A stretch of DNA of 64,000 nucleotides from a virus (IMGVR_UViG_3300037419_000894:1-64000), one strand, 5' to 3'; numbered from the stretch's first letter, positions 16,360-57,628 are shown. Notes: generated by a model not told the origin, from the sequence alone. Program-made: numbers and translations.

Positions 16360-16746
16360 ATGGCTGCAATCAACAATCGAGATTTGAACTTTATTCTGAC
16401 CACTGTCATTGAAGGTGGTAGCGCCTACTGGGCGAATGATAGTGATGTGTGTCAAACTGTTGAAATCAAACGTGAAGCAGACTCTGATGAAGATTTGCGC
16501 TCATTGAAGTTGGTTAGTGAGATCAAAATAACCACAGACGTCGATGGCAAAGGTTGGAAAACTCAGACCATTACTGCAACTGAAATGCGCAAGGCGCTGA
16601 AAGCAATGAAGGAAGATCAGAAATTGCCTGAGCATCTGCGCAAAATGGCTCGTAAGCTTCTGAATAATGGCGACGAAGATTACGATGCTGGCGACGCTGA
16701 CGTGATCTTTCAATACGCTCTGTTTGGTGAAATCGTGTTTGGTTAA
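16360..16746 (+). CDS. Hypothetical phage protein
   Basis: AAGGAG RBS; EGGSAYWA...DAGDADVIFQYALFGEIVFG. Confidence 0.85.
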   Translation: MAAINNRDLNFILTTVIEGGSAYWANDSDVCQTVEIKREADSDEDLRSLKLVSEIKITTDVDGKGWKTQTITATEMRKALKAMKEDQKLPEHLRKMARKLLNNGDEDYDAGDADVIFQYALFGEIVFG

Positions 16747-16903
16747 GCTAGCTGCGCACCGCAACAGCGCTAAGCACGCACGGCAAGCACCCGCCATTGC
16801 GCTCCTGCAGGGTTGCGCATACCCGCACTAGGGTGCACACTGTTAAAGCGCTTGTAGCGCGCATTTAAACGTGCTACAAGCGTGCCTCAAATTTGGAGAT
16901 TAG

Positions 16904-17155
16904 ATGGGAGCAACTGCTGAAGAGTATCAAGGGTTTCAACGAGCTGTTGCATTAGCTCTTGCAAAAGAACGACAAAAAGTAAAAGAGCAAGCGCCAACAG
17001 AAGTGGTTAGGTACATTGCTCAGTTTATGATCGCTGGCAAACCTAAGAAGGTTGAGAATACCGACTTTGACGTTTTCGAACAGATTATACTTCAGTACAG
17101 TAAGTCATTTCCGAACGTCCCGATTAATTTGTTTTCATATACGGAGTTAAAGTGA
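16904..17155 (+). CDS. Hypothetical protein
   Basis: GGAG RBS. Confidence 0.75.
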   Translation: MGATAEEYQGFQRAVALALAKERQKVKEQAPTEVVRYIAQFMIAGKPKKVENTDFDVFEQIILQYSKSFPNVPINLFSYTELK

Positions 17156-17628
17156 CCAAAACACCCAAACTCACGAAGCGAGCGCAAGAAGACTTGATTA
17201 TCTCTCAAGCGCTTGCAATCATCAACCGGCGTATGCATCGGAAGGATTACATTCTCAATCAGCCCAACGTGCTTGAAGATTACTTGCGGCTCAAGCTTGA
17301 CCACATGGACCGCGAAGTCTTTGGTGCACTGTTTCTAACAACTACGTTTCAGCTTATCGACGACGAAGTGCTATTTCAAGGCACGCTGTCGCATACACAA
17401 ATCGTACCGAGAGAGATTGTGCGCGCAGCGCTCAAGCACAACGCTGCGTTCGTGATCTTTTACCACAACCATCCACACGGGGACGACAACCCGAGCGGCC
17501 AGGACTTGATCATTACCAAGTCTCTAAAGACTAGTCTTGCAACCGTGGATGTAAAGGTAGTCGACCATATCATTGTACCGCGTGGCCGACAGAACGTATT
17601 CTCTTTCTCAACTGCCGGAGTGCTGTGA
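17152..17628 (+). CDS. RadC-like stand-alone JAB/MPN domain protein
   Basis: REVFGALFL, PREIVRAALKHNAAFVIFYHNHPHGDDNPSGQD, VDHII. Confidence 0.9.
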   Translation: MTKTPKLTKRAQEDLIISQALAIINRRMHRKDYILNQPNVLEDYLRLKLDHMDREVFGALFLTTTFQLIDDEVLFQGTLSHTQIVPREIVRAALKHNAAFVIFYHNHPHGDDNPSGQDLIITKSLKTSLATVDVKVVDHIIVPRGRQNVFSFSTAGVL

Positions 17629-17927
17629 TGCCTAACATGGGTCTGTACAGACGCGCACCTGCTCCAAAGAGGGTAGAACGTCTGTGCAAGCAGTGTGGTC
17701 AAAAGTTCTCGCCACGGGCAGTAGATGTCGCGCGTGGCTGGGGTCTGTTTTGCAACAAGGGCTGCAAAGCTGTATACCAGTCGGGTCACGCTCGACCAAG
17801 ACAACAACCCAAGCCAAACAAGCCTGCCGCTGCGCACGAAGTTGAGCATGCAGCAGTGCAGTCAAATTTCGACGAATGGGACCGTATTTGTGCTCAGGAA
17901 GATGCTTTATTAACTCAACGGAGATAA
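17628..17927 (+). CDS. Zinc-finger protein
   Basis: CKQC...FCNKGC. Confidence 0.7.
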   Translation: MPNMGLYRRAPAPKRVERLCKQCGQKFSPRAVDVARGWGLFCNKGCKAVYQSGHARPRQQPKPNKPAAAHEVEHAAVQSNFDEWDRICAQEDALLTQRR

Positions 17928-17928
17928 A

Positions 17929-18501
17929 ATGGATAATGACCATACAACCGCTGCAGAACTAGCCTATTTGCTGCAATGCGCCGTGGAGAACATGCGCAGC
18001 GCTGATCCGGAAAATGCAGAGCGAATTCGCGAAGCACGTTATCGAATCGCGTTTAAGCTCGAACAGGCTGCGAAACAATTGCTCGCTGCCCCGAGCAGCA
18101 CCGAGGTCAGCGCACAGACTGCTCCTGCATGGGATTGGGGTGTCGCTTTTACCGGCTACCAGATCGGACGATCCCAGCCCGCCGCCAGCTCCGAGAGCAT
18201 CGATACGCCGGAACTGCGGGCGTTGATGGAGGGTGACACGCTTTCTGCAGAAGCGCGTATTGCCCACATCGAATCCCTGATCGCTGCGCGGGTAGCACAG
18301 GCCGCGCCGGATGCGGTGCGCAATGCGGCGCTGGAGGAAGCGGCGCAAGCAATCGACAAATACGGCGACGCGAGCCTTGAGAGTGAGCAGCTTGAGGCGG
18401 CCATCACCTGCATGCATATTATCCGCGCCCTCAAGCGCACCCCGGCAGACGACAGCCAGCCCGCTGTGGGCGCAGCAGGTCAGGAAGGCGGTGTGTCATG
18501 A
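17929..18501 (+). CDS. Ala-rich hypothetical protein (GC-rich block)
   Basis: GGAG RBS; 190 aa. Confidence 0.75.
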   Translation: MDNDHTTAAELAYLLQCAVENMRSADPENAERIREARYRIAFKLEQAAKQLLAAPSSTEVSAQTAPAWDWGVAFTGYQIGRSQPAASSESIDTPELRALMEGDTLSAEARIAHIESLIAARVAQAAPDAVRNAALEEAAQAIDKYGDASLESEQLEAAITCMHIIRALKRTPADDSQPAVGAAGQEGGVS

Positions 18502-19069: not shown

Positions 19070-19084
19070 TACCAAAGGACAACC

Positions 19085-20053: not shown

Positions 20054-20054
20054 C

Positions 20055-20268: not shown

Positions 20269-20520
20269 ATGCAAACCAGTAATAACACATCCATCCTGGA
20301 TGCTCAAAAAGAGTTTGACGACAAATACATAACGGCGTCCGAAGTGATGCAGTTGTTGGACATTGATCGGTCCGTCTTATTGTACGCCCGTAACCACAAC
20401 AAACTTCCCGCGCCTATCTCCGCGAACGGCGGGCGTGTGCTGTTGTGGGAACGCAAAGTAATCCAGCCTTATTTGGATAATTGGAAAAAGAGCCTGCAAA
20501 CTCGCCGGGGTGAGCGTTAA
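20269..20520 (+). CDS. AlpA/excisionase-like HTH DNA-binding protein
   Basis: YITASEVMQLLDIDRSVL...KLPAP...LLWER pattern; abuts the primase start. Confidence 0.7.
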   Translation: MQTSNNTSILDAQKEFDDKYITASEVMQLLDIDRSVLLYARNHNKLPAPISANGGRVLLWERKVIQPYLDNWKKSLQTRRGER

Positions 20521-23066
20521 TGCCATTTAACTACGACAACATCCCTGAAGAGCTGCGTTGGATGCGCCAGTGGTACATTGCTGGTCCTGACGAGCACGGC
20601 AACTTTAAGTCACCACACGCCAAGGGGCGTAAGGGACTCTTCCATGTTAGCCCAAAGGATGAGCAACATGGTCAGGATTTCGAAACCATTGTCGAGTTTG
20701 TGTCTGCAAATTCACCGTGTGGTCTCGGGTTCATCCTTCGTCGTGGGGACGGCTACACGGTTATCGATCTCGATGTTAAAAATGAGGTCAATTATCCAAA
20801 CAAAGTTGACCATCTTGGTAGGCCTGTAAAATGGACTACCGAGGATGAGCTTTCTAGGTTCCACAAAATCATTGAAGCTTTTGATAGCTATACTGAGCGC
20901 AGTGCGAGCGGTCAAGGTTTCCACATTTGGGTGGAGGGAACCATCCCAAGCCGCGACGGCATGGGTATTAAGCGCGACGGTGTGGAGGTCTATTGCCAAG
21001 AGCGCTTTATTGTGTGCACGGGTGACGTGTTCCTGGACCGCCCAATCCGCAGACAGCAAGATTTGCTTGATATGCTGGTGACCGAGATTGAAGCTGGGCA
21101 GAAACAGTCGCAACGTTTCGATCTGGTTGAAGAAACGGAAGTAAAGACAGACGACGAAATCTTCGCTGAAGCCTGCTCGGCTGAAAACTCGGAAAAGTTT
21201 GTAAGTCTGTGTGAGGGTAACATTGACGGGTATCCGTCACAGTCTGAAGCAGACCTTGCATTAATGTCAATGTTTGCGTTCTACTCAAAATCGAACGCAC
21301 AGTGCCGGCGCATGTTCAGGCTAACCAGACTTGGCCAGAGATCCAAAGCGAACCGCAATGATGTGCACTTGGATCGAATCCTGCGCATTATTCGGTCTAG
21401 GCAATCGCTGGAGGAGCAAGCACAGGAATATGCTGAACGGATGACTGCTGCACTGGTGGCAAACCTGCGGCCCGGTGCACCCGTAGCACCCCCGCCGGTA
21501 CGCCCGGCAGCACAGCAAAGCACACCGCACAGCGCTCCCGCACCTGTACCGCCTGTGGTAGCACCCGCACCTGTACAAACTGCACCAGTAGCACCGCAAC
21601 CGATTCCGTACACGCAACCGCTTGAAGTCTCGCACATCCCATTCCCGGATGAAGTTGAACCGGAGGGTGACACATTCGAGTACGAGGAGACTAATAGGCC
21701 TGCTGGTATCGATTGGCCGCCAGGCATGGCTGGAGCGCTAGCGCGTTACATCTACAATAGCTCGCTGCGACCCGTGCGCGAAGTGTCGATTGTGGCCACA
21801 CTGGGCCTGCTTGCCGGAGTGTGTGGTAAAGCATTCCAAATCCCGCAGTCGGGCTTGAACCTGTACATCACATTGGTCGCACGGTCAGCAGTTGGTAAAG
21901 AGGCGATGCACAGTGGTATTGCTAACGTCATGAACTTTGTGCGCGATGCAGTGCCCAATGCTATGTCGTTTGTTGACTTTGCGGAGTATGCGTCCGGTCC
22001 TGCACTAACGAAAGTCACAGCAGCTAACCCATCGTTCGTGAACGTGTCTGGTGAGTGGGGTCGCCGTCTAAAACGTCTTGCAATGGAGGATGGCAGGGAC
22101 GGTCCGATGCAAAGCCTCCGGACGGTAATGACCAACCTGTATCAAAAGTCCGCATCGACGTCCATTGTTGGCGGTATTGGCTACTCCGACCAAGAAAAGA
22201 GTGTGGCTAGTGTTTCTGGTGTAGCGTACAGTATGATTGGTGAGACAACACCAAACACTTTCTATGAGTCGCTGACAGATAATATGATGGAAGATGGCTT
22301 TTTGAGCCGTTTCACCATTATTGAATACACTGGTGAGCGTCCACCTGAGAATGAGAATCCGGTTATGAAAGCGGACCCCATCCTCATCGAAGCTGTCTGT
22401 GCCCTGATGGCACAAGCTGTCACACTTAACGAGCGCTTTACAGTGCAACAGGTTCTGAGGAGCCAAGCTGCCCACGACATGTTGCGAGCATTTAATCTGG
22501 AGTGCGACGCAGAGATTCATGAAAGTGGCGATGATGAGAGTCGTCGTCAGATGTGGAACCGTGCGAGCTTAAAGGCTAGCCGAATTGCTGCTCTACTTGC
22601 TGTTGCAGATAACCATGTCAACCCGGTCATTCAGCAGAACCACGCAGAATGGGCTCTTGATGTGATTCGCCGTGACATTGCACTTATGCGCAGGCGCATT
22701 AACTCCGGTGACGTTGGTGTCGGTGATGCAACTCGTGAAAAGAAAGCCTTGTCGCTCATCCATCGCTATTTGGTGTCATCCTTGCCGCCGAGCTACGGTA
22801 TTCCGGAGCGCATACGTCAGGACGGCATCGTGCCTCGCAAGTATTTGCAATTGACCACACAACGCATTGCGTCCTTCACGACGCACAGGAATGGTCAGAA
22901 CTTAGCGCTCGACGCGACGCTTAAATCGTTGGTTGATAGTGGCTATCTAGTTGAAGTGCAAAAAGAGAAGATGCTGACACAGTACAACTTCTCCGGTCGA
23001 GCGTTCCGTGTAGTCTCCCTTCCGCCTAATATAGGCGAGAAGAAAAGTAGTGCAAAGCGTCAATAG
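20520..23066 (+). CDS. Primase-polymerase (AEP, NrS-1-like N-terminus and helix bundle) with DUF3987-type C-terminal domain
   Basis: VIDLD, SASGQGFHIW, EVY-x3-RF, SQSEADLAL; Pro-rich linker; E-x-G...P-x3-FLSRF. Confidence 0.8.
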   Translation: MPFNYDNIPEELRWMRQWYIAGPDEHGNFKSPHAKGRKGLFHVSPKDEQHGQDFETIVEFVSANSPCGLGFILRRGDGYTVIDLDVKNEVNYPNKVDHLGRPVKWTTEDELSRFHKIIEAFDSYTERSASGQGFHIWVEGTIPSRDGMGIKRDGVEVYCQERFIVCTGDVFLDRPIRRQQDLLDMLVTEIEAGQKQSQRFDLVEETEVKTDDEIFAEACSAENSEKFVSLCEGNIDGYPSQSEADLALMSMFAFYSKSNAQCRRMFRLTRLGQRSKANRNDVHLDRILRIIRSRQSLEEQAQEYAERMTAALVANLRPGAPVAPPPVRPAAQQSTPHSAPAPVPPVVAPAPVQTAPVAPQPIPYTQPLEVSHIPFPDEVEPEGDTFEYEETNRPAGIDWPPGMAGALARYIYNSSLRPVREVSIVATLGLLAGVCGKAFQIPQSGLNLYITLVARSAVGKEAMHSGIANVMNFVRDAVPNAMSFVDFAEYASGPALTKVTAANPSFVNVSGEWGRRLKRLAMEDGRDGPMQSLRTVMTNLYQKSASTSIVGGIGYSDQEKSVASVSGVAYSMIGETTPNTFYESLTDNMMEDGFLSRFTIIEYTGERPPENENPVMKADPILIEAVCALMAQAVTLNERFTVQQVLRSQAAHDMLRAFNLECDAEIHESGDDESRRQMWNRASLKASRIAALLAVADNHVNPVIQQNHAEWALDVIRRDIALMRRRINSGDVGVGDATREKKALSLIHRYLVSSLPPSYGIPERIRQDGIVPRKYLQLTTQRIASFTTHRNGQNLALDATLKSLVDSGYLVEVQKEKMLTQYNFSGRAFRVVSLPPNIGEKKSSAKRQ

Positions 23067-23698: not shown

Positions 23699-23699
23699 C

Positions 23700-23852: not shown

Positions 23853-23859
23853 TGCGCGT

Positions 23860-31745: not shown

Positions 31746-32480
31746 ATGTTTATTCTGTTGGACCTCGAAGAGATGTGCGTGCGCTACCGACATCCAAATC
31801 AGAACGTGCTCTTTAATCTTATGACTATCGAGTTCACGAATGCGGCGGTAGCATGCCAAGCAGACGACGATCCTGCGTCGTTCACGCGTTACACGGACCT
31901 GGAGCTCAAACTCTTGTTCCAAAACCTTACCGGACAAAAGTACACGGGCTACAGCCGGGAAATTCTGGTCAAGACCATTATTGCACTCATTGCAACCATT
32001 GAACCCGTGCAAGTCAATGCGTTGGAGCTGCGTGCGCAATCTCTGCACATCAAGGATGAGGAGCAAGGCTTCTTTAAGTACGTGCCTGGGCGCGTTTCGC
32101 CTACCCCGATGCCTGATGGTTACAAACCGCAAGCGCTTACAGCGCGCGCTGGGGTTGCCCCCATAGTTACCCCTAACCCTCCCGCTTTAACGCTGCCTGC
32201 GCGCGCTACGCAAGCGGCAGCTACCCCCGCACCAGCGCCGCAGCGCACCGCTAACCACACTCCAGCGGAGGCGCCCAAAGCTGGAGGTAAGACTGCTAGG
32301 GTTTGGGAGATTGCTGACCGGCAATTGCAACTCCAGCGTGAGGCAAATGAGAAGACTGGTGCAGCGTTAGACCTGAAAGCTCTACGCAAAGCTGTTGCAG
32401 CAGCCTGCGAAGCTGAGGGAGTGAACCCAAGTACCATGAGTGTCCAATTTTCCAAGTGGAAGAGCACCAAAAATTTGTAA
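31746..32480 (+). CDS. Two-domain protein, paralog family member 3
   Basis: C-terminal TARVWEIAD...AEGVNPSTMSVQFSKWK. Confidence 0.8.
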   Translation: MFILLDLEEMCVRYRHPNQNVLFNLMTIEFTNAAVACQADDDPASFTRYTDLELKLLFQNLTGQKYTGYSREILVKTIIALIATIEPVQVNALELRAQSLHIKDEEQGFFKYVPGRVSPTPMPDGYKPQALTARAGVAPIVTPNPPALTLPARATQAAATPAPAPQRTANHTPAEAPKAGGKTARVWEIADRQLQLQREANEKTGAALDLKALRKAVAAACEAEGVNPSTMSVQFSKWKSTKNL

Positions 32481-32588: not shown

Positions 32589-33185
32589 ATGGAAAACCAA
32601 GCCGCCCCGGTCGAAAAGACCGCCGAACAAATCGAAGCTGAAAACAAAGCTGCTGCAAAAGCTGCTGCTGACGCCGCCAAGGCTGAAGCTAAAGCCCAAA
32701 AGGAAGCTGCAAAAGCTGCCGCTGATGCTGCCAAGAAAGAAGCCAAAGAAAAGGCCGATGCTGCGCGCGCTGAAGCTAAGAAAGCCAAAGAAGAGGCTGC
32801 TGCCGCCGCCAAGAAGGCTAAGGAAGATGCCGCTGCTGCCGCTGCCAAAGCAAAGGCTGATGCTGCCGCTGCTAAGCAAGCCGAAAAGACCAAGGTCGTC
32901 ATGCCCAGCCAGAACGGCATCACCCGCCCGAAAGCAGACGGCGCCTGCGGAAAGGTCTGGGCCCTGGCCGACGCTGAATCCGCACGTCTGCAACAACCGG
33001 TGCCGATCTCGAATCTGCTGACCGCCGCCCGCGCTGCTGGCCTGAACGACGCGACTACCCGCACGCAGTACGCCCGCTGGAAGACCTTCAACGGCGTATT
33101 CGGCTCGGTGCCGAAGATTGTCGAAGTTGCGCCGGCCGCTGCTGAAACTGCATCGAACGACCAAACCAACACCGCAGCCGCCTAA
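32589..33185 (+). CDS. Histone-H1-like Ala/Lys-repeat protein, paralog family member 4
   Basis: AAKA/EAKK repeats, then GITRP...CGKVWALAD...GLNDATTRTQYARWK. Confidence 0.85.
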   Translation: MENQAAPVEKTAEQIEAENKAAAKAAADAAKAEAKAQKEAAKAAADAAKKEAKEKADAARAEAKKAKEEAAAAAKKAKEDAAAAAAKAKADAAAAKQAEKTKVVMPSQNGITRPKADGACGKVWALADAESARLQQPVPISNLLTAARAAGLNDATTRTQYARWKTFNGVFGSVPKIVEVAPAAAETASNDQTNTAAA

Positions 33186-33324
33186 TTCGGCGCCGGCCTG
33201 GTCCAAGTAGTTGTAGCAAAGAAAACGCGAGCGCCCTCCTCCACTCATAGACGCTCGCGCTTTCCCCTCCTATAAACCCGTACTCGACAAGCTAAGGGCT
33301 TGCTCGATCCTCGTGAGGTTGTCA

Positions 33325-34053
33325 ATGATTCCTATCAACACCCAAGCGCCTGAAAAACGGCGCCAAGCTGACGACGGCTCCAGCTTGGAGGTGCACTCCC
33401 TCTTCTACACAATCCAAGGCGAAGGACCGTACTGCGGTTATCCGTCCGTGTTTGTGCGGCTGGCCGGGTGCAACCTTCAATGCCCGTCCTGTGACACGGA
33501 GTACACCGAAGGTCGCGAGCATTTGCACATCCACATCCTCGGTCCCAGCGCATGCAGGCTCTTTCCCAAAGAAATGAACCACAAGCTTGTGGTCATTACC
33601 GGTGGTGAACCCTTCCGCCAAAACATTGGTCCGTTTGTAAAAGGATTGATTGCAAACGGGACGCATGTTCAGATCGAAACAAACGGCACGCTCGCACCAT
33701 CCGAAGAGTTCCTTGAGGTGATCAACAAACACCCTGACGACGTCACGATCGTTTGCAGCCCAAAGGCTGGCAAGGTCAACCCGTCTCTGTGGCCACACAT
33801 CGACGCCTACAAGTACGTGCTGGATTATAACAGCATGGACCTCGACGGCCTACCGATCCGTGCGCTTAACCACACATGCGCCCCGCGCGTCGCTCGTCCC
33901 CACGAAGGGTTCAACGGTCCGATCTATCTGCAACCAATGGACCCAAAGCATGACGCGGATTACATGCGCAACGTCCGCGCTGTCAAGCGTAGCTGTATGC
34001 AGCACGGATACATCCTCCAATTGCAGATCCACAAAATCATAGGGGTCGAATAA
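33325..34053 (+). CDS. queE: 7-carboxy-7-deazaguanine synthase (radical SAM)
   Basis: FYTIQGEG, VRLAGCNLQCPSCDT (CxxxCxxC), ITGGEP, IETNG, QIHK. Confidence 0.95.
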   Translation: MIPINTQAPEKRRQADDGSSLEVHSLFYTIQGEGPYCGYPSVFVRLAGCNLQCPSCDTEYTEGREHLHIHILGPSACRLFPKEMNHKLVVITGGEPFRQNIGPFVKGLIANGTHVQIETNGTLAPSEEFLEVINKHPDDVTIVCSPKAGKVNPSLWPHIDAYKYVLDYNSMDLDGLPIRALNHTCAPRVARPHEGFNGPIYLQPMDPKHDADYMRNVRAVKRSCMQHGYILQLQIHKIIGVE

Positions 34054-34238
34054 TGGCGGGTGCTAAATCTAACGTTATCGTCCAAAAGGCTTTTCAAATG
34101 GTCCTTACCTTGGACGAGGACGAGGTTCGTATGTTAAAGGGTATGGTGCAGAATCCTTACCATCCGGACGAAACTCAAAAAGAAGCGGACCTCCGCGCCA
34201 CAATCCACAACGCAATCTTTGCAATGGGAGTCATGTAA
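34053..34238 (+). CDS. Small hypothetical protein
   Basis: TAATG coupling at both ends. Confidence 0.7.
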   Translation: MAGAKSNVIVQKAFQMVLTLDEDEVRMLKGMVQNPYHPDETQKEADLRATIHNAIFAMGVM

Positions 34239-34459
34239 TGTCTAAGAAACAAAAGCGCGTCTTCGCGTACAGCAATCTGCCGGCTCGCCCGGGCAACGTG
34301 CTCACGCAGGCAATTGCAGTGGGCCTGCTCATGGACCGCTTGAATGCGCCGGGCTGGGTGTGGGGCGCAGTGGGCCTGTTTTACGCACTCATCTTCATTG
34401 TTGCCATTGTTGCTTCGTTCACTCAAGTCCAGATCGATTACTTCAACAACGAGAAATAA
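34238..34459 (+). CDS. Small membrane protein
   Basis: Two hydrophobic helices; TAATG coupling. Confidence 0.7.
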   Translation: MSKKQKRVFAYSNLPARPGNVLTQAIAVGLLMDRLNAPGWVWGAVGLFYALIFIVAIVASFTQVQIDYFNNEK

Positions 34460-34460
34460 C

Positions 34461-35258
34461 ATGTCCAAACAGAAAGCTCTCGTCGTGCTGAGCGGCGGCC
34501 AAGACTCCACTACCTGCCTAGCCTGGGCTATTGCCCAAGGCTTCGACGTCCACACCATCACCTTCGATTACGGTCAAAAGCACGCAATTGAAATTGCGTC
34601 AGCGTTCAAGGTTGCCAAGATTCTTGGTATCCCGCCGGCCAAAATGGAACTGGTCCAACTCGGTGAAGGCATCCTTGCGGGTACGTCGCCGCTGGTCAAC
34701 CGGGCGGTTGAGCTCGAGCAGTATGCTGATCACCACAGTCTGCCTGGCGGCCTGGAAAAGACGTTCGTGCCGATGCGCAACCAACTGTTCCTGACCGTCG
34801 CTGCGAATCGCGCCTATGTCATGGGCTGCAACGTGCTGGTGACGGGCGTCTGCCAAGAAGACTCCGGCGGCTACCCTGACTGCCGTGCGGTGTTTATCAA
34901 CGCCTTGCAAAGTACGATCAACCACGGCACGTTCACCGGCGAACCGGGCACCCTGCCGCCGCTGCGTATCCTTACCCCGCTGATGTTCCTCACCAAGGCG
35001 CAGTCGGTCAAGCTGGCTATGGAACTGCCAGGCTGCATGGAAGCGCTCGCGTATAGTCATACCAGCTACGACGGCGCCTATCCTCCGGTCGGACACGATC
35101 ACGCAACCCTGCTGCGCGCCAAGGGGTTCGAAGAGGCTGGCGTGCCTGACCCGTTGGTCGTGCGTGCGTGGAAGGAGGGCTTGATGGATTTGCCTAAAAC
35201 CCGGAATTATAATAATGTGATCCCGAATATGGAGGCTGCACAAAGGGCAGTGGAATAA
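34461..35258 (+). CDS. queC: 7-cyano-7-deazaguanine synthase (lacks the Cys4 zinc motif)
   Basis: LSGGQDST PP-loop, FDYGQ, VPMRN, YPDCR, TPLM. Confidence 0.95.
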   Translation: MSKQKALVVLSGGQDSTTCLAWAIAQGFDVHTITFDYGQKHAIEIASAFKVAKILGIPPAKMELVQLGEGILAGTSPLVNRAVELEQYADHHSLPGGLEKTFVPMRNQLFLTVAANRAYVMGCNVLVTGVCQEDSGGYPDCRAVFINALQSTINHGTFTGEPGTLPPLRILTPLMFLTKAQSVKLAMELPGCMEALAYSHTSYDGAYPPVGHDHATLLRAKGFEEAGVPDPLVVRAWKEGLMDLPKTRNYNNVIPNMEAAQRAVE

Positions 35259-35758
35259 TGACTTATCAATCAACTAAGACATTCGGTCACGAGCTCGGCC
35301 TGTCCGCATGCTTCCGGCAGCATGCAGCAACTCACTCGCATTGCTCACTTTTGCACGGCTACGCGCTGTCGTTCAAGTTTGTCTTTGAAGCGGACACTCT
35401 AGACGACCGTAATTGGGTCCAAGACTTCGGGGGTTTAAGAGAACTGAAGCGCCAGCTGCAAGCAACCTTTGACCACAAGCTTGTTGTCGCTGAAGATGAT
35501 CCAAACTTGGACGCAATCTGCTCTCTCAACGGCACAATTGCAGATGTGCTGCTATTGCCCGCTGTTGGATGCGAAGCCTTTGCAAAGCTGGCTTATGATA
35601 TGGCAGTGCAGGTCATCCAAAATGCCAATAACAGGGAGTTCGTAGCCAAGCGCGCGAAAGGTTTGGTGTGGGCAGAAAGTAATCGCGTCCGCGTTGTCTC
35701 GTGCGAGTGTGCTGAACACGGCGCCAATAGCGCCATTTATATCGGAGAAAAGAAGTAA
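35258..35758 (+). CDS. queD: 6-carboxy-5,6,7,8-tetrahydropterin synthase
   Basis: HSHCSLLHGY, DFG, FDHK, C-terminal E-H-x2-NSA. Confidence 0.9.
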   Translation: MTYQSTKTFGHELGLSACFRQHAATHSHCSLLHGYALSFKFVFEADTLDDRNWVQDFGGLRELKRQLQATFDHKLVVAEDDPNLDAICSLNGTIADVLLLPAVGCEAFAKLAYDMAVQVIQNANNREFVAKRAKGLVWAESNRVRVVSCECAEHGANSAIYIGEKK

Positions 35759-36661: not shown

Positions 36662-36671
36662 GGAGAAAAAA

Positions 36672-37061: not shown

Positions 37062-37175
37062 AACGCGCTGTACGCTGCGCAACTTACGGGGTACACTTGC
37101 ATACGTGCACCCCGCTTTGAACCGCTTGCCAGCGCTGTACGTGCGCGGCAGCAGTACCCTAACCGGACCAACACC

Positions 37176-37397: not shown

Positions 37398-38329
37398 CCA
37401 TGAATTTGTTTTTAGCCGCGGTCTACACGAACAGCTACATGAAGACCCAAAATCGGTACTCAAAGCTTACCGAGGTTGAGCAGCGGATTATGGACCGAGT
37501 ACCTCACATTCTGGAAAGTTTTCACTATGTCAACGGACAAAAATATGTCGACGTCATGCGGCAACAAGGTGCAAAAGTTTTTCTTGACTCTGGTGCTTTC
37601 TCCGCTCATTCTTTGGGCGTTAGCATCGATATTAATGCTTATTGTGATTACATTATCCGCAATCGTGATATTCTACGGGTTGAGGATGGTGCAGTCATGG
37701 CTTCTGTACTTGACGGTATTGGTGACCCATTACAAACCTACCGCAATCAGCTCTACATGGAAGCAATGGGTGCGAAGCCGTTGCCTTGCTTTCACTTTGG
37801 AGAAGACCCCCGTTACCTCGAATACTACGTTGCGAACTATGACTACATCACCATCGGTGGCCTGGTTCGCAAAACTGCGCAAGACCAAAAAGTCTGGCTC
37901 GACCGCATCTGGCCGCTAATGCTCGACGGTAGCGGTAGACCGAAGCTTAAGGTGCACGCGTTCGGTATGACTGCGCCGTGGCTGATGGAGCGTTACCCTT
38001 GGTGGAGTGTGGACTCTTCGTCTTGGATTCAGGCTGCTGCATTCGGCAGCATCTTCACCAGCGAGCACGGCCCAATTGCTGTGTCAAAGGACTCACCTGC
38101 AAAGCATGACGCAGGTCGCCATCTTAGTACGCTTAAAGACGTGGAACGGCAGGCAATTGAAATGATGCTTGACCTTAAAGGCTTCAACTTCGAGCGTTTG
38201 TCCACAGTCTACGAGTCGCGAGCTTGTTACAACACGCTCGGCTATATGGAACTGAACGATATCATTAACGACCGAATTTCCAGAAACGGCGGTCGGTTTG
38301 AAGTAGAACAAATACAAGAACTTTTCTAG
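37394..38329 (+). CDS. dpdA: DNA 7-deazaguanine transglycosylase (TGT fold)
   Basis: FLDSGAFS, VLDGIGD, PCFHFGE, IGGLV, VHAFG, SVDSSSW; next to folE/queD/queE/queC. Confidence 0.88.
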   Translation: MTMNLFLAAVYTNSYMKTQNRYSKLTEVEQRIMDRVPHILESFHYVNGQKYVDVMRQQGAKVFLDSGAFSAHSLGVSIDINAYCDYIIRNRDILRVEDGAVMASVLDGIGDPLQTYRNQLYMEAMGAKPLPCFHFGEDPRYLEYYVANYDYITIGGLVRKTAQDQKVWLDRIWPLMLDGSGRPKLKVHAFGMTAPWLMERYPWWSVDSSSWIQAAAFGSIFTSEHGPIAVSKDSPAKHDAGRHLSTLKDVERQAIEMMLDLKGFNFERLSTVYESRACYNTLGYMELNDIINDRISRNGGRFEVEQIQELF

Positions 38330-40639: not shown

Positions 40640-42889
40640 ATGTCACGACGTTCTGACGCCATTGGCATGTTTTGGGAGGACCATGCAAAAGTCAAACCTC
40701 CCAAGGTTGAAAAGGTAAAGCGTACTCCGCCGCATCCGTTTTGGCTTGAACCTGATTACTTGCCGAACTACGAGCAGGCACTGGCGTACAAGCCTGACTT
40801 GTTCTCGGACATGGAGCTCCTAGCTGCGCAGCAGCGCGGAGAGCGCTTGTCTTACGATATTGAGATCTACCCGAACTACGCTCTGTTCAGCTTTAAGGGT
40901 ATTGATTGCGGCAAGGTGCTCATCATGGAGGTCCACCTAGACCCTCTTGAACATCACGAATATCCCTTGGACATTCCCAAGCTGACATGGGTGCTCCATA
41001 ACTTCTGCATCGTCAACTTCAATGGCCGCAAGTATGACTTCCCTGTGACCACACTCGTGCTTGCGGGGCACTACGATCCTGAGCAACTCTGGGACGCAAC
41101 GGTCATGCTCATCGCTGAGCGATTGCAGCCTAAAGAGGTCTACAAGAAGTACAAGACGCACGCGCTCAAGATTGACCAGATTGACCTTATTGAACTGACT
41201 GCACTTGCTCCCGGTTTGAAGGTGTGCGCTGGGCGCCTGCATGCACCGCGCTTGCAAGACCTGCCATTCAAACCCGGTACGTATCTAACCCAGCAACAGA
41301 TTGTTGTTCTTCGTTACTACAACATTAATGACTTGGACAACACAATCATTCTGCACAACAGTTTGATTGAACAGATTCAGTTGCGGGAAGCTGTCGGCAA
41401 GAAATACAATATTGATCTTCGCTCGCACTCAGATGCGCAGATGGCGGAAGCCATTATGTCGAGTGAGATACGCAAGCTGAAGCGGATTAAGTATCTGCCG
41501 AAGCCTGTGGTCAACCCAGCGTTCGAACACAAGTACAAACCACCAGCGTACATCCGGTTTCAGACTCCGCTCATGAACCATGTTATGAGTGTGGTCACAA
41601 ATGCGGTGTTCAAAGTGGATGGCTTTACTGGTGAGGTTATCCCGCCGAAAGAATTTGACGATCTTGTTATCCGAATGGGTAACAGCAACTACAAGGTTGG
41701 CATCGGTGGCATGCACACGCAGGAAAAGAACGTTGCGCATGTAGCAGACGACGAGTACGAAGTGATTGACACTGACGTTACGTCGTACTACCCGTTCCTT
41801 ATCCTGAATGCAGGCCTTGCACCAGCAGCCCTCGGCGTCGACTTCTTGCGCGTGTTCCGGGCAATTGTTGAAGCGCGCGTGAAGGCTAAAGCTGCCGGCG
41901 ACACGGTCACTGCTGACAGCCTTAAGATTGTTATTAACGGTACGTTCGGTAAGCTTGGAAGCAAGTGGTCGATCATGTACTCACCTGACCTGTTGTTGCA
42001 AGTGACACTTACCGGCCAGTTGTCGATTCTCATGCTTGCTGAAGCATGCGAACTCAATGGCATCGAAGTTTGCTCGGTCAACACTGACGGTATTGTGGTC
42101 AAGTGCCACAAGTCCAAACGTGAATTCTTTAATTCGCTGGTCAAGTGGTGGGAACAGGCAACTGGCCTGAACACTGAGGAGACTCGCTACTGTGGCACAT
42201 ACAGCAAGGACGTGAACAACTACATTGCTGTCTACGAGAAACCTCAGAAGGGTGAACTATTTAAAACGAAAGGTCTGTATGCGAAAACGTCGTCTAAAAA
42301 GAACGCGGTTAATGAGGTCTGCATTGACGCGGTCAAAGCGTTTATTCAAAACGGCACTGCGCCAGACGTTACAATCCGCGCATGTCGAGAGATTAAGAAG
42401 TTCACAACGATGCGCGCAGTTAGTGGTGGAGCTGTTAAGATGTCAGGTAGCATGTATGACCCAAACGCTTCAGTACAAGAAATGCTGTCAGTTGTCCAGA
42501 AAAACGGATGGGTTCCATGGCATGCGGATAAATGGATTCATCAGCCCTCCCATCAAAACTTGGACGAGGGCTGCACTCTTGCGGAGGCATACAAGTTGTG
42601 TTGCCCCGTCACCCAAGGCGAATACCTCGGGAAGCTCATACGTTGGTACTATGCTGTTGACGCGCAGGGGGAAATCATATCTGCCAAGACTGGCAATAAA
42701 GTTGCGCGAACTGACAATGCGAAACCGCTGATGAACTTGCCTAGTGAGTTCCCGACCGACATCAATTATCAGTGGTACGTAGACGAAGCTAATAAGATCC
42801 TTAAGAAAGTCGGTTACCTTAAGGATGGACCAGTTGTGCCGGATGGGTCCGAGGAAGAGGAAGAAGATGACGAGGAGGAAACCGCTTAA
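40640..42889 (+). CDS. Family B DNA polymerase with 3'-5' exonuclease domain
   Basis: YDIEIY, FNGRKYD, DVTSYYP, KIVINGTFGK, NTDGI. Confidence 0.93.
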   Translation: MSRRSDAIGMFWEDHAKVKPPKVEKVKRTPPHPFWLEPDYLPNYEQALAYKPDLFSDMELLAAQQRGERLSYDIEIYPNYALFSFKGIDCGKVLIMEVHLDPLEHHEYPLDIPKLTWVLHNFCIVNFNGRKYDFPVTTLVLAGHYDPEQLWDATVMLIAERLQPKEVYKKYKTHALKIDQIDLIELTALAPGLKVCAGRLHAPRLQDLPFKPGTYLTQQQIVVLRYYNINDLDNTIILHNSLIEQIQLREAVGKKYNIDLRSHSDAQMAEAIMSSEIRKLKRIKYLPKPVVNPAFEHKYKPPAYIRFQTPLMNHVMSVVTNAVFKVDGFTGEVIPPKEFDDLVIRMGNSNYKVGIGGMHTQEKNVAHVADDEYEVIDTDVTSYYPFLILNAGLAPAALGVDFLRVFRAIVEARVKAKAAGDTVTADSLKIVINGTFGKLGSKWSIMYSPDLLLQVTLTGQLSILMLAEACELNGIEVCSVNTDGIVVKCHKSKREFFNSLVKWWEQATGLNTEETRYCGTYSKDVNNYIAVYEKPQKGELFKTKGLYAKTSSKKNAVNEVCIDAVKAFIQNGTAPDVTIRACREIKKFTTMRAVSGGAVKMSGSMYDPNASVQEMLSVVQKNGWVPWHADKWIHQPSHQNLDEGCTLAEAYKLCCPVTQGEYLGKLIRWYYAVDAQGEIISAKTGNKVARTDNAKPLMNLPSEFPTDINYQWYVDEANKILKKVGYLKDGPVVPDGSEEEEEDDEEETA

Positions 42890-42985
42890 AACGTGCTGTA
42901 CGGTGCGCAGGGCGCGGGAGGGGGTTTGCTACGGGGTGCAGGGTTTGCGCAGCGCCTGCACCCCTTGCCGTGTGCGGCAGGGTCG

Positions 42986-43519
42986 TTACTTGCTCGTTGC
43001 TGCCGGTGCCTGCGCAAGCAGTTCGGTCTTGCGACCGCTGTCGTGGGTCGTGCCGAACCAGAAGGCCATGACCACACCCCAGCCGGTGCTCAGGGAACCA
43101 AGCATCAGTAGGAGCGCCTGGGAGTCCGACACCTTCAGCCACCCCGTCATCATGCCGACGAGGATAAAGAAATACCCGAAGGTTACAGCGATCGACAGCG
43201 CTGCCGGCACCCATGAACGAGTAGCCTTCTGCATATCCCGGGCATCTTTGCGGTCTGCCGCCGCAATGGCTTCCAGGTCGGTAACATTCTTGAAGCCGAG
43301 TTCCTGCATCTGCAGCGCAAAGGTGTTGTCAGCATTCTTCAGCGCCAGCATCTGCTCTGGGGTTGCACCGGACAGCGCCTGCTTTAGCGTGTCGGCGGTT
43401 TTCTCGGACAGTCCAAGGGCCTTGCCCGCAGCTTCAACAGCCATGCCGCCCAACGGTCCACCAATTGCGGTGCCGATCCACGGCGCGACAGTTTTCAGGA
43501 GTGCAGAGAAGTCCATCAT
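42986..43519 (-). CDS. Holin-like membrane protein (3TM holin type)
   Basis: APWIGTAIGGPLGG N-terminus; DRKDAR; C-terminal TMs ending FWFGT; adjacent to endolysin. Confidence 0.75.
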   Translation of the reverse strand: MMDFSALLKTVAPWIGTAIGGPLGGMAVEAAGKALGLSEKTADTLKQALSGATPEQMLALKNADNTFALQMQELGFKNVTDLEAIAAADRKDARDMQKATRSWVPAALSIAVTFGYFFILVGMMTGWLKVSDSQALLLMLGSLSTGWGVVMAFWFGTTHDSGRKTELLAQAPAATSK

Positions 43520-43932
43520 TTCACCTCCTTTCCAGCCTTAAGGTCAGCAATGCTTAGCCCGCCCGTGTACTGGCAGTGAGCGGTTTCCTTGAACGTCTTC
43601 CAGCGCCCAGCCCACTCCAGGCCGACACTTTCCGCGATTTGACCACACTTCAGGTACAGTGCAGCGTCGCCCCATTGCGGTTTGCTACCAACCATCGGCA
43701 CCCAATCAAAGGCGCAACGATAGTTGTGGTACGACTCACCAGCCCTGGCATTGGTGACAACCTTGCCCGGTTTGGTGCGACCCATCGCGTACAGACCTGC
43801 TTGGCACTCGTTGTCGCGATAGGTGCAATAGATCATCACTTGCACGCCCTGCTTCTCGCATGCTGCAAGAAACGCAAGAGCTTTCGTCCGGACTACCGGG
43901 AGCAGTTCTTCAAGGCTTCGACTGTCGATCAT
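43516..43932 (-). CDS. Endolysin, M15-family L-Ala-D-Glu peptidase
   Basis: YR-x3-Q-x2-LY-x2-GR, SYHNY-x2-AFD, WAG-x-W...E-x2-H. Confidence 0.93.
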   Translation of the reverse strand: MIDSRSLEELLPVVRTKALAFLAACEKQGVQVMIYCTYRDNECQAGLYAMGRTKPGKVVTNARAGESYHNYRCAFDWVPMVGSKPQWGDAALYLKCGQIAESVGLEWAGRWKTFKETAHCQYTGGLSIADLKAGKEVK

Positions 43933-44116
43933 TTTGTTTCTCCATTTGCTCAAGCTGCCTTTGTTTCAGGCGGTTGTCCAGAATGCCGCCTCGGATCCGG
44001 ATGCACATCCAAATAAACGCCGCGAGTGTGGTCAAACCGGGGACCAGGCCTAGCAAAGCGCTCACCCACGTAGTAATGGATAATACGTCAGCAAGATGCT
44101 TGAGGTCGTCGGTCAT
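43910..44116 (-). CDS. Small holin/antiholin-like membrane protein
   Basis: Hydrophobic central segment and charged C-terminal tail, upstream of endolysin. Confidence 0.6.
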   Translation of the reverse strand: MTDDLKHLADVLSITTWVSALLGLVPGLTTLAAFIWMCIRIRGGILDNRLKQRQLEQMEKQNDRQSKP

Positions 44117-55586: not shown

Positions 55587-55613
55587 GTTATATTCCTTGT
55601 GTTGTTACGGTTT

Positions 55614-55642
55614 AAAAAGCCCCTCGGGAGCTACCCGAGGGG
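55614..55642 (-). terminator. Rho-independent terminator after the tail tube gene
   Basis: CCCCTCGGG/CCCGAGGGG stem plus T5 on the - strand. Confidence 0.8.
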
Positions 55643-55682
55643 AAAGCGCACAAGCCCGGGAGTCACCGCGAGCTTGTTAAGA

Positions 55683-56918
55683 TCAGACGTACTGGCTGTC
55701 CTGAATTGCCATGACGGTTTGGAAGTTAGTCTGTCCAGAACCGCCAGCAATGCATTCCAGTGCGGTGAACGGTGCGGTCAGGACCAGACCTTTCTCACCA
55801 TCGTCCTTACCAGCACCTCCCATTTTAACACGGGGCAAGGAAATTGCAACGAAATCCGCGTTTGCTGCGTTGCTGGCCGTGAAGGCAGCGTACAGCGACA
55901 CTTCCACTTCGTTGACGAAGTAGTCGCGGATCGTTGCATCGGTGAACAGCACCGTGGCCTGGCCGCTGACCTCGATGACGCCCGGCAGGATGTCCGGGTC
56001 AACGTTTGAGCCAACCACACCGCCGATGACGTTGTAGTTACCCTTGACGGTAACGTTCAACCCTGTCACCAGACCGACAGCGACGCCATTCAGGTACAGG
56101 ACGCCGTTCGATGCTGCCAGGCTGGAACCCGTGGTCACCGGAGTCGGGCTGACGAAGTAGCCTGCGGTGCTCGTGGTCATGTTAAGACCCTTCACGCCGA
56201 AGTCGACGGTCGCCATGCCGGTCGGCGGCAGCTTGATGTCAGCCTGGTCGATCACGCAGTCGGTGAACTGTTCCGCCTGCACGATGTCCTGGAAGTTGTG
56301 CTCGAAGGTGAAGTAGTCGCGGGTATGACCGGTCTGCGGGACGTAGGTATGCTTGCCAACGGACGTGATGGTAACTGCTGCGGTTTCAGTCTTCGCAACC
56401 ACAGGCTGGCCGTCCAGGCGGCAGACAGTCATAACCTTGTCGGTCAGGTTGGTGATCATCATGTTAGCTGCGTTGTTGGCGGTCGCCGTCGTGGTGAAGC
56501 CCGATGCACGAACCACCATGCCGATCTTGAACTTGTTGCCAGTCAGGAAGCTTGCAGTGGTTGCGGTGAGCGTGCCCGTATTGGTTCCGGTCGAGGCAGA
56601 GACAATATCACCAGCTGCTCCAACCACAGACACAGCGCTGACCACACGCTGACGAAGGATAGCCTCGAAGAACTGCTGATGGGTGGCTACACTCAGCTCA
56701 CCAGAGACGGTGCCGTCAACACTGCGCACGCCGTGACGGAAGTCAGCGCGTTGCTGCGACGGTCGGATCTCGCTTGACTGGTAGGTAGCCTTTTTCAGAT
56801 CCAGATTCGAAGTGGTACGGCGCAGATTCTGGCCCGTACCGGTGCCAGCTGCTTGTCCCAGGCCTGGTTGACGCTTGAACGTTACAAGCTTATTTACGCC
56901 GGAGGCGATGGTAGTCAT
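55683..56918 (-). CDS. Major tail tube protein
   Basis: 411 aa; SEIR-x-S...R-x-G-x-R-x-V-x-G pattern; position. Confidence 0.88.
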   Translation of the reverse strand: MTTIASGVNKLVTFKRQPGLGQAAGTGTGQNLRRTTSNLDLKKATYQSSEIRPSQQRADFRHGVRSVDGTVSGELSVATHQQFFEAILRQRVVSAVSVVGAAGDIVSASTGTNTGTLTATTASFLTGNKFKIGMVVRASGFTTTATANNAANMMITNLTDKVMTVCRLDGQPVVAKTETAAVTITSVGKHTYVPQTGHTRDYFTFEHNFQDIVQAEQFTDCVIDQADIKLPPTGMATVDFGVKGLNMTTSTAGYFVSPTPVTTGSSLAASNGVLYLNGVAVGLVTGLNVTVKGNYNVIGGVVGSNVDPDILPGVIEVSGQATVLFTDATIRDYFVNEVEVSLYAAFTASNAANADFVAISLPRVKMGGAGKDDGEKGLVLTAPFTALECIAGGSGQTNFQTVMAIQDSQYV

Positions 56919-56980
56919 AATTTCCTCTCTGTTTAAGAACCCGCCAAAGCGGTAATTGAGCCGCCCTCAGCGGCAGGTTA

Positions 56981-57628
56981 TCAACTATTAAAAATGTCTG
57001 CTTGGTATTCGATTACTACGGGCACAACAAAGTATTCGTCCACAGGATGCCCGCCAATGATTGCCGGGGTCTTAAGGATCTTTACATCCACACCGTCTGC
57101 ACTAAACACAGCTCCGCGCTTAAACGTAGACCGGATTAGTTCAGCGCGTGTGGTCACGGCTAATGTACCAAGGCCTGTCGGATAGTTGAGCATGATCTGG
57201 AACATGCCCGTTTCCCGAATCAAACTGTTGCCGTAACTTGGGTTCTCAGGGGTAGCTGGAAGCAGATATGCGCGCTGGTAGGCAACCCCGGCAAGCGGTT
57301 TAAAGTAAGCACCCTCCCATGCGGTAAGCTTTGCGCGCGCAACCCCGCCAGCACCCGCTGCCGTGCTTGCTATGGGGGTGTTCGTAACGGGGTGCAGCAG
57401 CGTAAAAGTGCTTGACCCCGTCACGTTCACTGTAAATGCGCCGTTCAATGCTCCAACCGAGTGACCTTGAATTTCAACAAGCAGACCGCTCTGGAGGTTG
57501 TGCGTAGCCTGTGTGGTTACAGTGACCACACTCCCGGAGGTAGAGCTCACGATCACTGCATCTGGGATGATTCCAGGCAGGCTATCGAGTGCGCTCTCCA
57601 ACGCTTGTCGGATCTTTACCAGAGACAT
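56981..57628 (-). CDS. Tail terminator (DUF4128-like) with inserted beta-rich domain
   Basis: IRQALE...AWE...GMFQI-x-L-x-YP-x-G-x-G; insert about aa 24-98. Confidence 0.7.
   Translation of the reverse strand: MSLVKIRQALESALDSLPGIIPDAVIVSSTSGSVVTVTTQATHNLQSGLLVEIQGHSVGALNGAFTVNVTGSSTFTLLHPVTNTPIASTAAGAGGVARAKLTAWEGAYFKPLAGVAYQRAYLLPATPENPSYGNSLIRETGMFQIMLNYPTGLGTLAVTTRAELIRSTFKRGAVFSADGVDVKILKTPAIIGGHPVDEYFVVPVVIEYQADIFNS

Follow-up and report, generated by a model that had tools for sequence, protein, structure and literature searches.

Introduction

The closest described counterparts are the dPreQ0 systems of phages iggy and CAjan, which rely on dpdA, folE, queD, queE and queC. In iggy, DpdA recognizes only GA, and at least 97% of these sites carry the modification (PMC10484667); in CAjan, it acts on both GA and GGC (PMC7544227). 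Both papers describe near-saturating modification of GA (PMC10484667, PMC7544227). Term searches of both texts returned no mention of motif-free stretches, and no paper describing GA/TC-poor islands of the kind reported below was found in the literature. Bacterial RNA polymerase tolerates 7-deazapurines with mid-sized 7-substituents only partially in vitro, with initiation probably affected (PMC4838386).

Here we analyzed a window of 64,000 nt (IMGVR_UViG_3300037419_000894:1-64000), the first 64 kb of the 74-kb genome of an uncultured soil phage. A sequencing-run search found the phage itself only in short-read contigs of soil and rhizosphere metagenomes and listed no RNA sample with it, and megablast of 24 kb against a phage collection gave no match. 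The phage carries the same five genes as iggy and CAjan, and islands in its genome avoid exactly the words published for those systems. Unlike the iggy and CAjan findings, which concern an enzyme, the islands belong to the architecture of the genome, and this phage is known from its sequence alone.

Results

GA/TC-poor islands exceed chance genome-wide

A first-pass annotation had listed six short islands almost free of GA and TC, and its counts matched ours exactly: 1, 1, 1, 1, 1 and 2 GA+TC in 146, 157, 144, 116, 103 and 147 nt (I1 to I6). At the genome rate of 0.116 per nt, 12 to 18 are expected in each. We scanned the genome for 100-nt windows with at most 20% of the expected GA/TC and found 1,095, compared with a mean of 6.7 and a maximum of 42 in dinucleotide-preserving shuffles of the whole genome. 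Equally poor windows numbered two for the control words AG/CT and zero for CA/TG. The avoidance is thus specific to GA/TC. The scan added two islands, one of 1 kb at 294-1365 (I0) and one at genome positions 68160-68288, outside the window. Two weaker spots, near 7.2 and 13.65 kb, showed partial depletion only (10 GA/TC over 221 nt and 2 over 68 nt, respectively).

The gene labels given to the islands (primase, paralog gene, convergence of two arms, tail terminator) hold. I2 (21445-21601, plus strand) lies in a Pro/Ala-rich linker of the primase-helicase gene (20520-23066). I3 (32117-32260, plus strand) occupies the linker before the C-terminal domain of gene 31746-32480 (phrog_7864), a domain shared with the first gene (919-1380). 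I6 (57267-57413, minus strand) is located in the tail-terminator gene (56981-57628), at the junction between an N-terminal extension and the conserved domain; the PHROG tail-terminator match spans residues 99-211.

The islands could be a by-product of Pro/Ala-rich linkers, GC-rich hairpins or a repeated element family lacking GA/TC by chance, or else of the erosion of a mutagenic modification site under weak constraint. Two of the intragenic islands are Pro/Ala-rich and contain neither Asp nor Glu, the intergenic islands share motifs, and patches poor in AC/GT or in GG/CC, of compositional origin, also occur in the same genomes. Against this, a codon-aware null, in which the protein was kept and the codons were resampled 2,000 times, left 1 or 2 GA/TC observed where 10 to 12 were expected in the three intragenic islands (I2, 1 vs 11.6; I3, 1 vs 9.9; I6, 2 vs 10.7). 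For the first gene, 1 was observed and 17.9 were expected. No resampling was as low in any of these four coding islands (0/2000; z -3.6 to -5.3), and amino-acid or codon composition does not account for the depletion (1-2 observed vs 10-18 expected). The other nine dinucleotide classes were mostly close to expectation under this null; the classes that moved most were CA/TG, AC/GT, TA and GC, which rose in compensation. The islands survived both the genome-wide scan and the codon-aware null, which had been named as the test able to overturn them. In addition, at least 30 ordinary intergenic gaps had normal GA/TC (0.09-0.16 per nt), and the observed/expected ratio over the whole genome was 0.92-0.93. 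Variable positions of orthologous islands stay GA/TC-free in relatives of 40-62% GC: among eight orthologous copies of I4, 235 mismatches had created 6 GA/TC, compared with ~58 expected. The codon-aware null, the ordinary gaps and the I4 mismatches largely refute the by-product explanation, which we regard as very improbable, and show that selection acts on the islands.

An AC/GT-free stretch of 270 nt at 32628-32897 was considered as a second kind of island and rejected; it encodes an Ala/Lys/Glu-rich low-complexity tail.

The phage encodes a preQ0 pathway and a DpdA

Genes for preQ0 synthesis were found on the plus strand at 33313-36396: queE (33313-34053; PHROG QueE, 2.5e-58), queC (34344-35258; Pfam QueC, 3.6e-51), queD (35258-35758; Pfam PTPS, 1.9e-11) and folE (35758-36396; Pfam GTP_cyclohydroI, 1.6e-70). 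They are followed by dpdA (37394-38329, plus strand; phrog_887, E 9e-80), whose product is a DNA guanine transglycosylase and the presumed reader of GA and GGC. In tblastn, this DpdA was 57-63% identical over 99% of its length to the annotated DpdA proteins of Seuratvirus, Nipunavirus and Iggyvirus; a Pfam search at the default threshold gave no match for it. As judged by these homologies, the full preQ0 pathway together with DpdA constitutes the machinery for 7-deazaguanine modification of DNA. The modified base would probably be dPreQ0, because the QueC lacks a Gat domain.

GGC is depleted together with GA

In the islands of G000-G004, GGC/GCC reached 30-59% of the dinucleotide-shuffle expectation (z -5.6 to -10.5). 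I0, which covers the early control region and the first gene, contains 17 GA/TC vs 125 expected and 5 GGC/GCC vs 35. The depletion of GGC/GCC in islands is two- to threefold and not complete; in the short ones the word occurs at about the genome-wide rate. GGC/GCC was likewise depleted in the islands of all 17 IMG/VR loci with a DpdA at least 71% identical, and in those of the CAjan-like phage KurtStettler (ratio 0.52). It was not depleted in the islands of the iggy-like phage PBPA162 (327 vs 312). Co-depletion of GGC therefore matches the motifs published for DpdA in each of the two groups, CAjan-like and iggy-like, and this depletion of GGC/GCC in islands is described here for the first time. 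Island composition and the published relatives of this DpdA (58-63% identical) together suggest that its target words are GA and GGC.

A reader other than DpdA could also impose such a ban, namely a host defense nuclease, a phage nuclease acting at GA/TC sites, or a process at the RNA level, such as reading by an RNase or mimicry of ribosome-binding sites (GGAG includes GA). A dinucleotide ban could in principle serve any GA reader, and a stretch without GA can contain neither a GGAG-type ribosome site nor a TGA stop. However, GA and TC are avoided equally on one strand, which places the avoidance at the level of the duplex rather than of RNA. The GA steps that do remain in islands are in the GGAG context in 23% of cases, compared with 4.6% genome-wide, the opposite of ribosome-site avoidance. 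Co-depletion of GGC tracks the published motif sets, and among the phages without DpdA that were checked, lambda and YuA had no islands and T1 had one. We therefore consider another reader improbable.

Islands recur among relatives

In 26 related loci (443 kb, 40-62% GC), we detected 68 GA/TC-poor segments and 5 AG/CT-poor ones. Four whole relatives have 7 to 11 islands each, and the islands of relatives are often at matching places; the avoidance is conserved. GA/TC-poor islands occur in PBPA162, a cultured iggy-like phage, as well, including a divergent control region near 42.9-44.0 kb and the linker of the gene that follows the RadD-like helicase. In contrast, few islands or none were found in Seuratvirus, Nonagvirus, Nipunavirus and Vid5, although these phages modify their DNA. 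For the iggy/PBPA162 group, nanopore modification data have already been published, for iggy itself (PMC10484667).

Intergenic islands lie at transcription-unit boundaries

The intergenic islands sit at the boundaries of transcription units. I1 (16741-16886; 1 GA/TC in 146 nt) separates the early block from the replication block, and the intergenic gap at this place (16747-16903) has 4 GA/TC in 157 nt. It contains a 14-bp hairpin (~16848-16883) and, at 16865, a TWAAACGYG box located ~20 nt upstream of the ribosome site of gene 16904-17155. I4 (37050-37165; 1 in 116 nt) lies between the queuosine gene block and dpdA. The stop codon of gene 36576-37061 and the I4 box (37059) overlap; a hairpin (37088-37113) and a TGCC...GGCA inverted repeat come next. 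Modules of this type were found upstream of dpdA in at least eight relatives. I5 (42880-42982; 1 in 103 nt) marks the convergence of the two arms, with the stop codon of the polymerase gene at 42889 and that of a minus-strand gene at 42986. It has a box at 42887, a 10- to 13-bp hairpin (42933-42964) and the palindrome GCCG-N4-CGGC. Relatives have an island ~5-7 kb downstream of dpdA, comparable to I5. The island at 68.2 kb in the genome is just upstream of putative terminase genes, and the weak island at 7111-7331 has a degenerate copy of the box.

TWAAACGYG occurs five times in the genome. Four of these copies fall in the four short intergenic islands; each carries an extra C and points in the direction of transcription. 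The box is likewise concentrated in islands of G001-G004 and is specific to this clade. We rejected it as a -35/-10 promoter since its hexamers are inconsistent between copies. No promoter was recognized in the islands with sigma-70 and sigma-54 patterns; the sigma-54 search gave no match, and a generic scan for sigma-70 promoters and terminators over 30-45 kb gave no more matches than shuffled sequence did and failed to single out the islands.

Hairpins with T-runs behind them covary among relatives. In the window, strong hairpins at 37088-37113 and 42933-42964 are followed by weak T-runs; orthologues have covarying stems followed by TTTT(T)AA, and the generic terminator scan missed the copies in the window. 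RNAalifold returned no consensus structure for the I4-type module from a crude alignment of 11 sequences, which was too noisy for the purpose, and single-sequence folds were used instead. Whole-island folding energies were unexceptional (z -1.6 to +1.7).

Intragenic islands, shared words and spacing

Intragenic islands have no special fold (I2, z +0.5; I6, z +1.7) and are variably present among relatives. The linker orthologous to I2 is GA/TC-free in G001 and G003 and not in G002 or G004. Linkers orthologous to I3 are GA/TC-poor in G001, G003, G004, NP1 gp41 and PBPA162 gene 3013-3672, and I6 is shared with G001 only. These islands occupy protein segments that tolerate recoding. We found no recognizable element in them, and several close relatives lack them; in the iggy-like phage, many islands lie inside structural genes. 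Since islands occur within genes and are patchy among relatives, control DNA cannot be the whole story.

The islands had been said to share GGGTGCA/TGCACCC, GCGC and GTAC, and to lie in several cases about 5 kb apart. Compared with shuffled islands, GGGTGCA/TGCACCC stood out (7 observed vs 0.4 expected) and was common to intergenic and intragenic islands. GCGC was slightly enriched and mostly fails as an island signal; GTAC fails, and both GTAC and TGCA were discarded as by-products of composition in the same test. Three of eight gaps fall in the range of 4.5-6 kb, a weak excess (P ~0.025, uncorrected). The gaps range from 4.7 to 16 kb and are more even than random (coefficient of variation, P 0.008-0.018) in G000, G001 and PBPA162 and not in G002-G004. 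A true period is absent, and on both counts a strict 5-kb period was rejected.

These observations bear on the possibility that the windows, although unmodified, have another purpose, as landing pads on which proteins of replication, recombination or packaging could work where modified DNA would block them. Such sites might include an origin within the linker of the primase, comparable to lambda ori in the O gene linker, first-round priming sites on a fully modified incoming genome, and a pac site before the terminase genes. Such roles would suit islands within genes, including the structural genes of PBPA162, where transcription punctuation is unexpected. They would also suit I2, in the linker of a replication initiator-type gene, the position of the 68.2-kb island before the putative terminase genes, the even spacing in three of six genomes, and the GGGTGCA word found in both classes. 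On the other hand, neither iterons nor an AT-rich unwinding element is evident, close relatives do not conserve the intragenic islands, even spacing fails in G002-G004, and the best-conserved islands bear terminator-type hairpins at gene ends. Landing pads are thus an unlikely explanation overall, if a less remote one than another GA reader.

Discussion

We favor the reading that selection has cleared the words of the phage's own DpdA from the islands, that the islands are canonical DNA, and that the intergenic ones are punctuation kept readable (probability about 0.6). Selection would have stripped GA from both strands almost fully and taken out some two thirds of GGC. Outside the islands, a target word would occur every ~7-9 bp, which would give a packaged genome dense in a 7-deazaguanine. 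The islands, lacking GA and in part GGC, would probably stay ordinary DNA, canonical on freshly replicated and fully modified molecules alike. I0, I1, I4, I5 and the 68.2-kb island would then act as punctuation between transcription units, with an oriented TWAAACGYG box, covarying terminator-type hairpins and small palindromes as their contents. The most likely benefit of leaving them unmodified is that RNA polymerase and DNA-binding proteins read incoming and replicated DNA alike. The intragenic islands probably hold cis-acting DNA sites of some kind.

The first-pass annotation had proposed deliberately unmodified windows in a hypermodified genome. The encoded machinery, the identity of GA with the published DpdA word, the codon-aware null and the avoidance of GGC speak for this proposal; the 5-kb spacing, GTAC and, for the most part, GCGC drop out of it. 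"Deliberately" is to be understood as selection keeping the islands, and nothing further.

Several known phenomena resemble these islands in part. Vertebrate CpG islands are unmethylated windows at control regions of a methylated genome. By analogy only, short control-region windows there also escape a genome-wide modification aimed at a dinucleotide; in CpG islands, however, the word is kept and the enzyme excluded, whereas in this phage the word itself is removed. Restriction-site avoidance is also selection on short DNA words in phage genomes, but it is genome-wide and concerns palindromes of 4-6 bp, whereas a dinucleotide is banned here in about ten local patches on both arms. The 1-kb I0, at the start of the early region, recalls the modification-free leading regions represented by T5 first-step-transfer DNA and the T7 early region. 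I4, I5 and their orthologues resemble intrinsic terminators in having covarying GC-rich hairpins and then T-runs (weak in the window) after stop codons. Ordinary terminators, however, are not GA/TC-free, and the ban extends 100-160 nt past the hairpin and occurs inside genes as well.

It is about an even bet that phages with motif-directed guanine hypermodification generally have this architecture, with selection maintaining deserts of 100-1,000 bp where transcription units meet, in the first early cassette and in permissive gene segments. There, host or phage proteins would require canonical DNA, and the words missing from the deserts (GA only, or GA and GGC) would report the specificity of DpdA from sequence alone. 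If this is true, hypermodified phage genomes are not uniform and contain selected windows of plain DNA. These windows would reveal which DNA transactions do not tolerate 7-deazaguanine, would be weak spots for restriction enzymes and CRISPR in otherwise resistant phages, and would make the target words of DpdA predictable in uncultured phages.

GA/TC-free islands in the genome

The window covers the initial 64 kb of a single virus contig of 74,241 bp (53% GC), whose sequence was found solely in soil and rhizosphere metagenomes. The + strand carries the genes up to 42889, the - strand those from 42986 on. Genome-wide, GA/TC occurs at 0.116 per nt. The first-pass annotation had counted only one or two GA/TC in each of six islands of 103 to 157 nt, and these counts are exact. 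Three islands are intergenic (16741-16886, 37050-37165 and 42880-42982) and three intragenic: 21445-21601 in the primase linker, 32117-32260 in the linker of gene 31746-32480, and 57267-57413 in the tail terminator gene. Screening 100-nt windows for at most two GA/TC recovered all six islands, plus a 1-kb one at 294-1365 and another at genome positions 68160-68288, beyond the window. The real genome has 1095 such 100-nt windows, whereas 100 whole-genome shuffles that preserved dinucleotides had a mean of 6.7 and a maximum of 42; the equally frequent mirror pair AG/CT gave two. Other classes that stood out were all compositional (AC/GT in an Ala/Lys/Glu-rich tail, GC in AT-rich patches). The nearly AC/GT-free 270 nt at 32628-32897 (gene 32589-33185) was rejected as a second kind of island: it encodes an Ala/Lys/Glu-rich, histone-H1-like low-complexity tail, of a type that recurs in four whole relatives (G001-G004), NP1 and PBPA162.

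Among 41 intergenic gaps of at least 50 nt, most had 0.09-0.16 GA/TC per nt, and depletion was confined to the island gaps. Therefore, general decay of GA/TC in weakly constrained DNA is not the cause. The eight strong islands are separated by gaps of 16.0, 4.7, 10.7, 4.9, 5.8, 14.4, 10.9 and 6.8 kb. A spacing of about 5 kb had been proposed; three gaps do fall at 4.5-6 kb (P ~0.025, uncorrected), but a 5-kb period did not hold. Gaps were more even than random in this genome, G001 and PBPA162 (P 0.008-0.018, the first two not being independent of each other), and not in G002-G004. Evenness of this kind would be expected if transcription units were similar in size.

Codon choice in coding islands

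The codon-aware null called for at the outset was run with the protein sequence fixed and codons redrawn by genome-wide usage (2000 resamplings). GA/TC was observed once versus 11.6 expected in the primase linker, once versus 9.9 in the linker of gene 31746-32480, twice versus 10.7 in the tail-terminator island, and once versus 17.9 in the first gene (919-1380). In each of these four coding islands, 0 of 2000 resamplings were as low. The remaining nine dinucleotide classes were mostly near expectation, the largest shifts being compensating rises in CA/TG, AC/GT, TA and GC. Thus, codon choice itself avoids GA/TC, over and above the effect of amino-acid composition. Pro/Ala-rich coding, suggested earlier as part of the cause, does lower GA/TC through the lack of Asp and Glu, but is not sufficient alone.

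Conservation among relatives

Searching IMG/VR for DpdA yielded 26 loci (443 kb, 40-62% GC, DpdA 48-85% identical), which contained 68 GA/TC-poor and 5 AG/CT-poor segments. Many had one island directly upstream of dpdA and a further one where the polymerase gene ends, about 5-7 kb downstream of dpdA. The whole relatives G001-G004 (69-72 kb) had 7-11 GA/TC-poor segments each, and the cultured, iggy-like phage PBPA162 had 14-22, the number varying with the threshold. NP1, Vid5 and a Seuratvirus had three per 41 kb, a Nonagvirus one, T1 one, and lambda and YuA none. In PBPA162 (MK816297.1), whole small genes are nearly free of GA/TC (e.g., 16-254 and 15174-15399), as is a divergent control region of roughly 1 kb at 42877-44045; GGC/GCC is not depleted there.

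Eight orthologous copies of the island at 37050-37165 differ from the window copy at 235 aligned positions, and together contain 6 GA/TC versus about 58 expected from unconstrained changes. These sequence comparisons thus indicate that the ban is under selection in its own right and not carried along with a conserved motif. Composition and mutational erosion are largely excluded as causes, as the codon-aware null, the normal ordinary gaps and these mismatches all speak against them.

Island words and DpdA

The + arm encodes the primase-helicase (20520-23066, 53% identical to its counterpart in Pseudomonas phages PaMx25 and NP1), helicases, a ligase, a Cas4-type exonuclease, a clamp and DNA polymerase. 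It also contains, all on the + strand, a complete preQ0 pathway (queE, 33313-34053; queC, 34344-35258; queD, 35258-35758; folE, 35758-36396) and dpdA (37394-38329; phrog_887, E 9e-80). DpdA identity is 63% with Seuratvirus, 62% with Nipunavirus and 58% with Iggyvirus. Because QueC lacks the amidotransferase domain present in NP1, 9g-like phages and Vid5, dPreQ0 would be the expected base.

In published work (PMC10484667, PMC7544227), G in GA is the sole target of the iggy DpdA, with at least 97% of sites modified, and the CAjan DpdA modifies GA and GGC. A search of the pooled islands for other depleted words, made with no particular motif in mind, ranked GGC/GCC as the most depleted trinucleotide (0.37 of Markov expectation versus 0.89 genome-wide). 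Against dinucleotide-preserving shuffles of each island, short islands contained 30 GGC/GCC versus 84 expected in this genome, 36 versus 95 in G001, 39 versus 66 in G002, 47 versus 105 in G003 and 21 versus 49 in G004 (z -5.6 to -10.5). In absolute terms, the window's short islands have GGC/GCC at about the genome-wide rate, and the deficit shows only when their richness in GC and GG is taken into account; near-absence of GGC/GCC is limited to the 1-kb island. The ratio was 0.15-0.70 in 17/17 loci with a DpdA at least 71% identical to the window's, and 0.52 in the CAjan-like phage KurtStettler. PBPA162 islands had 291 versus 274 expected (z +1.6). Seven islands of IMGVR_UViG_3300017754_001794 (62% GC, DpdA 64% identical) were PBPA162/iggy-like, with a GGC ratio of 1.07, which suggests a GA-only DpdA. 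Across lineages, island words therefore track the two experimentally known motif sets. No other indirect evidence points as strongly to DpdA as the reader avoided.

A reader of the words in RNA is unlikely and largely excluded, because GA and TC are equally avoided on one strand. Residual GA in pooled island interiors (this genome and G001-G004) lay in GGAN in 47% of cases versus 22% genome-wide, and in GGAG in 23% versus 4.6%; TGAN was rare. These may be contexts poorly modified by DpdA, or merely G-rich hairpin stems. Since GGAG is enriched, avoidance of ribosome-site mimicry is likewise unlikely and largely excluded. The GA-containing word TGACCACAC has 48 copies on both strands of the 74-kb genome (e.g., window 2251-59667) and none in islands.

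Intergenic islands

Intergenic islands lie at the start of the replication block (16741-16886), between the queuosine block and dpdA (37050-37165), at the convergence of the two arms (42880-42982), upstream of putative terminase genes (genome 68.2 kb) and in the divergent early region (294-1365). The box T[TA]AAACG[CT]GC has four genomic copies (16865, 37059, 42887 and, on the - strand, 68271), one per short intergenic island and each oriented with local transcription; at 37059 and 42887 it overlaps the upstream gene's stop codon. Of the copies of the shorter form TWAAACGYG in G001 to G004, 6/11, 3/4, 3/5 and 2/7 lie in islands (expected 0.1-0.2), and none was found in PBPA162 or NP1 islands. 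In modules of the type at 37050-37165, a GGGG...CCCC hairpin comes after the box, its stem kept while its sequence varies among relatives, and then a TGCCG-N4-CGGCA-type inverted repeat. TTTT(T)AA follows the hairpin in relatives, where it therefore seems terminator-like; T-runs are weak in the window's own copies. Of the words said to be shared by islands, GGGTGCA/TGCACCC is enriched (7 versus 0.4 in shuffled islands) and also present in intragenic islands, but GTAC is not enriched, nor is TGCA. The GA-poor gap at 13.65 kb (13655-13700) contains the extended -10-like TGTTATAAT, a possible promoter ahead of gene 13696-14001.

Intragenic islands

The intragenic islands occupy permissive protein segments: two are Pro/Ala-rich linkers, and the third lies at the junction of an N-terminal extension and the tail-terminator domain. 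No unusual fold was seen in the three (z +0.5, -1.1 and +1.7). They are evolutionarily unstable among G001-G004. The tail-terminator island is common to G001 only, the primase-linker island to G001 and G003, and that of gene 31746-32480 to G001, G003 and G004, the latter also being found in the orthologues of NP1 (gp41, E 1e-16) and PBPA162. The N-terminal extension of the tail-terminator gene (56981-57628), about 100 residues, is present in this phage, G001 and G004 and absent from G002 and G003. The first gene and gene 31746-32480 resemble each other over about 26 C-terminal residues (54% identity, E 5e-8). This motif, which NP1 gp41 also retains, could be a DNA-binding module whose sites might lie in the islands. 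PBPA162 has many islands within structural genes, the tape measure included, for which transcription punctuation cannot account. A cis-function as origin, priming site or binding site is possible for intragenic islands.

Islands as probably canonical DNA

The islands are best read as stretches that have been purged of DpdA target words and would therefore remain canonical DNA. For the intergenic islands this is probably because control DNA has to be read in the same way whether or not the molecule is modified. Bacterial RNA polymerase only partly tolerates 7-deazapurines with ethynyl- or vinyl-sized groups in vitro, the block probably being at initiation (PMC4838386); the preQ0 cyano group is of about that size. 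Term searches of the iggy and CAjan papers and of a 2026 preprint on a Seuratvirus, together with full-text literature searches, found no description of motif-free stretches. The cultured PBPA162 is suitable for studying the islands in the laboratory.
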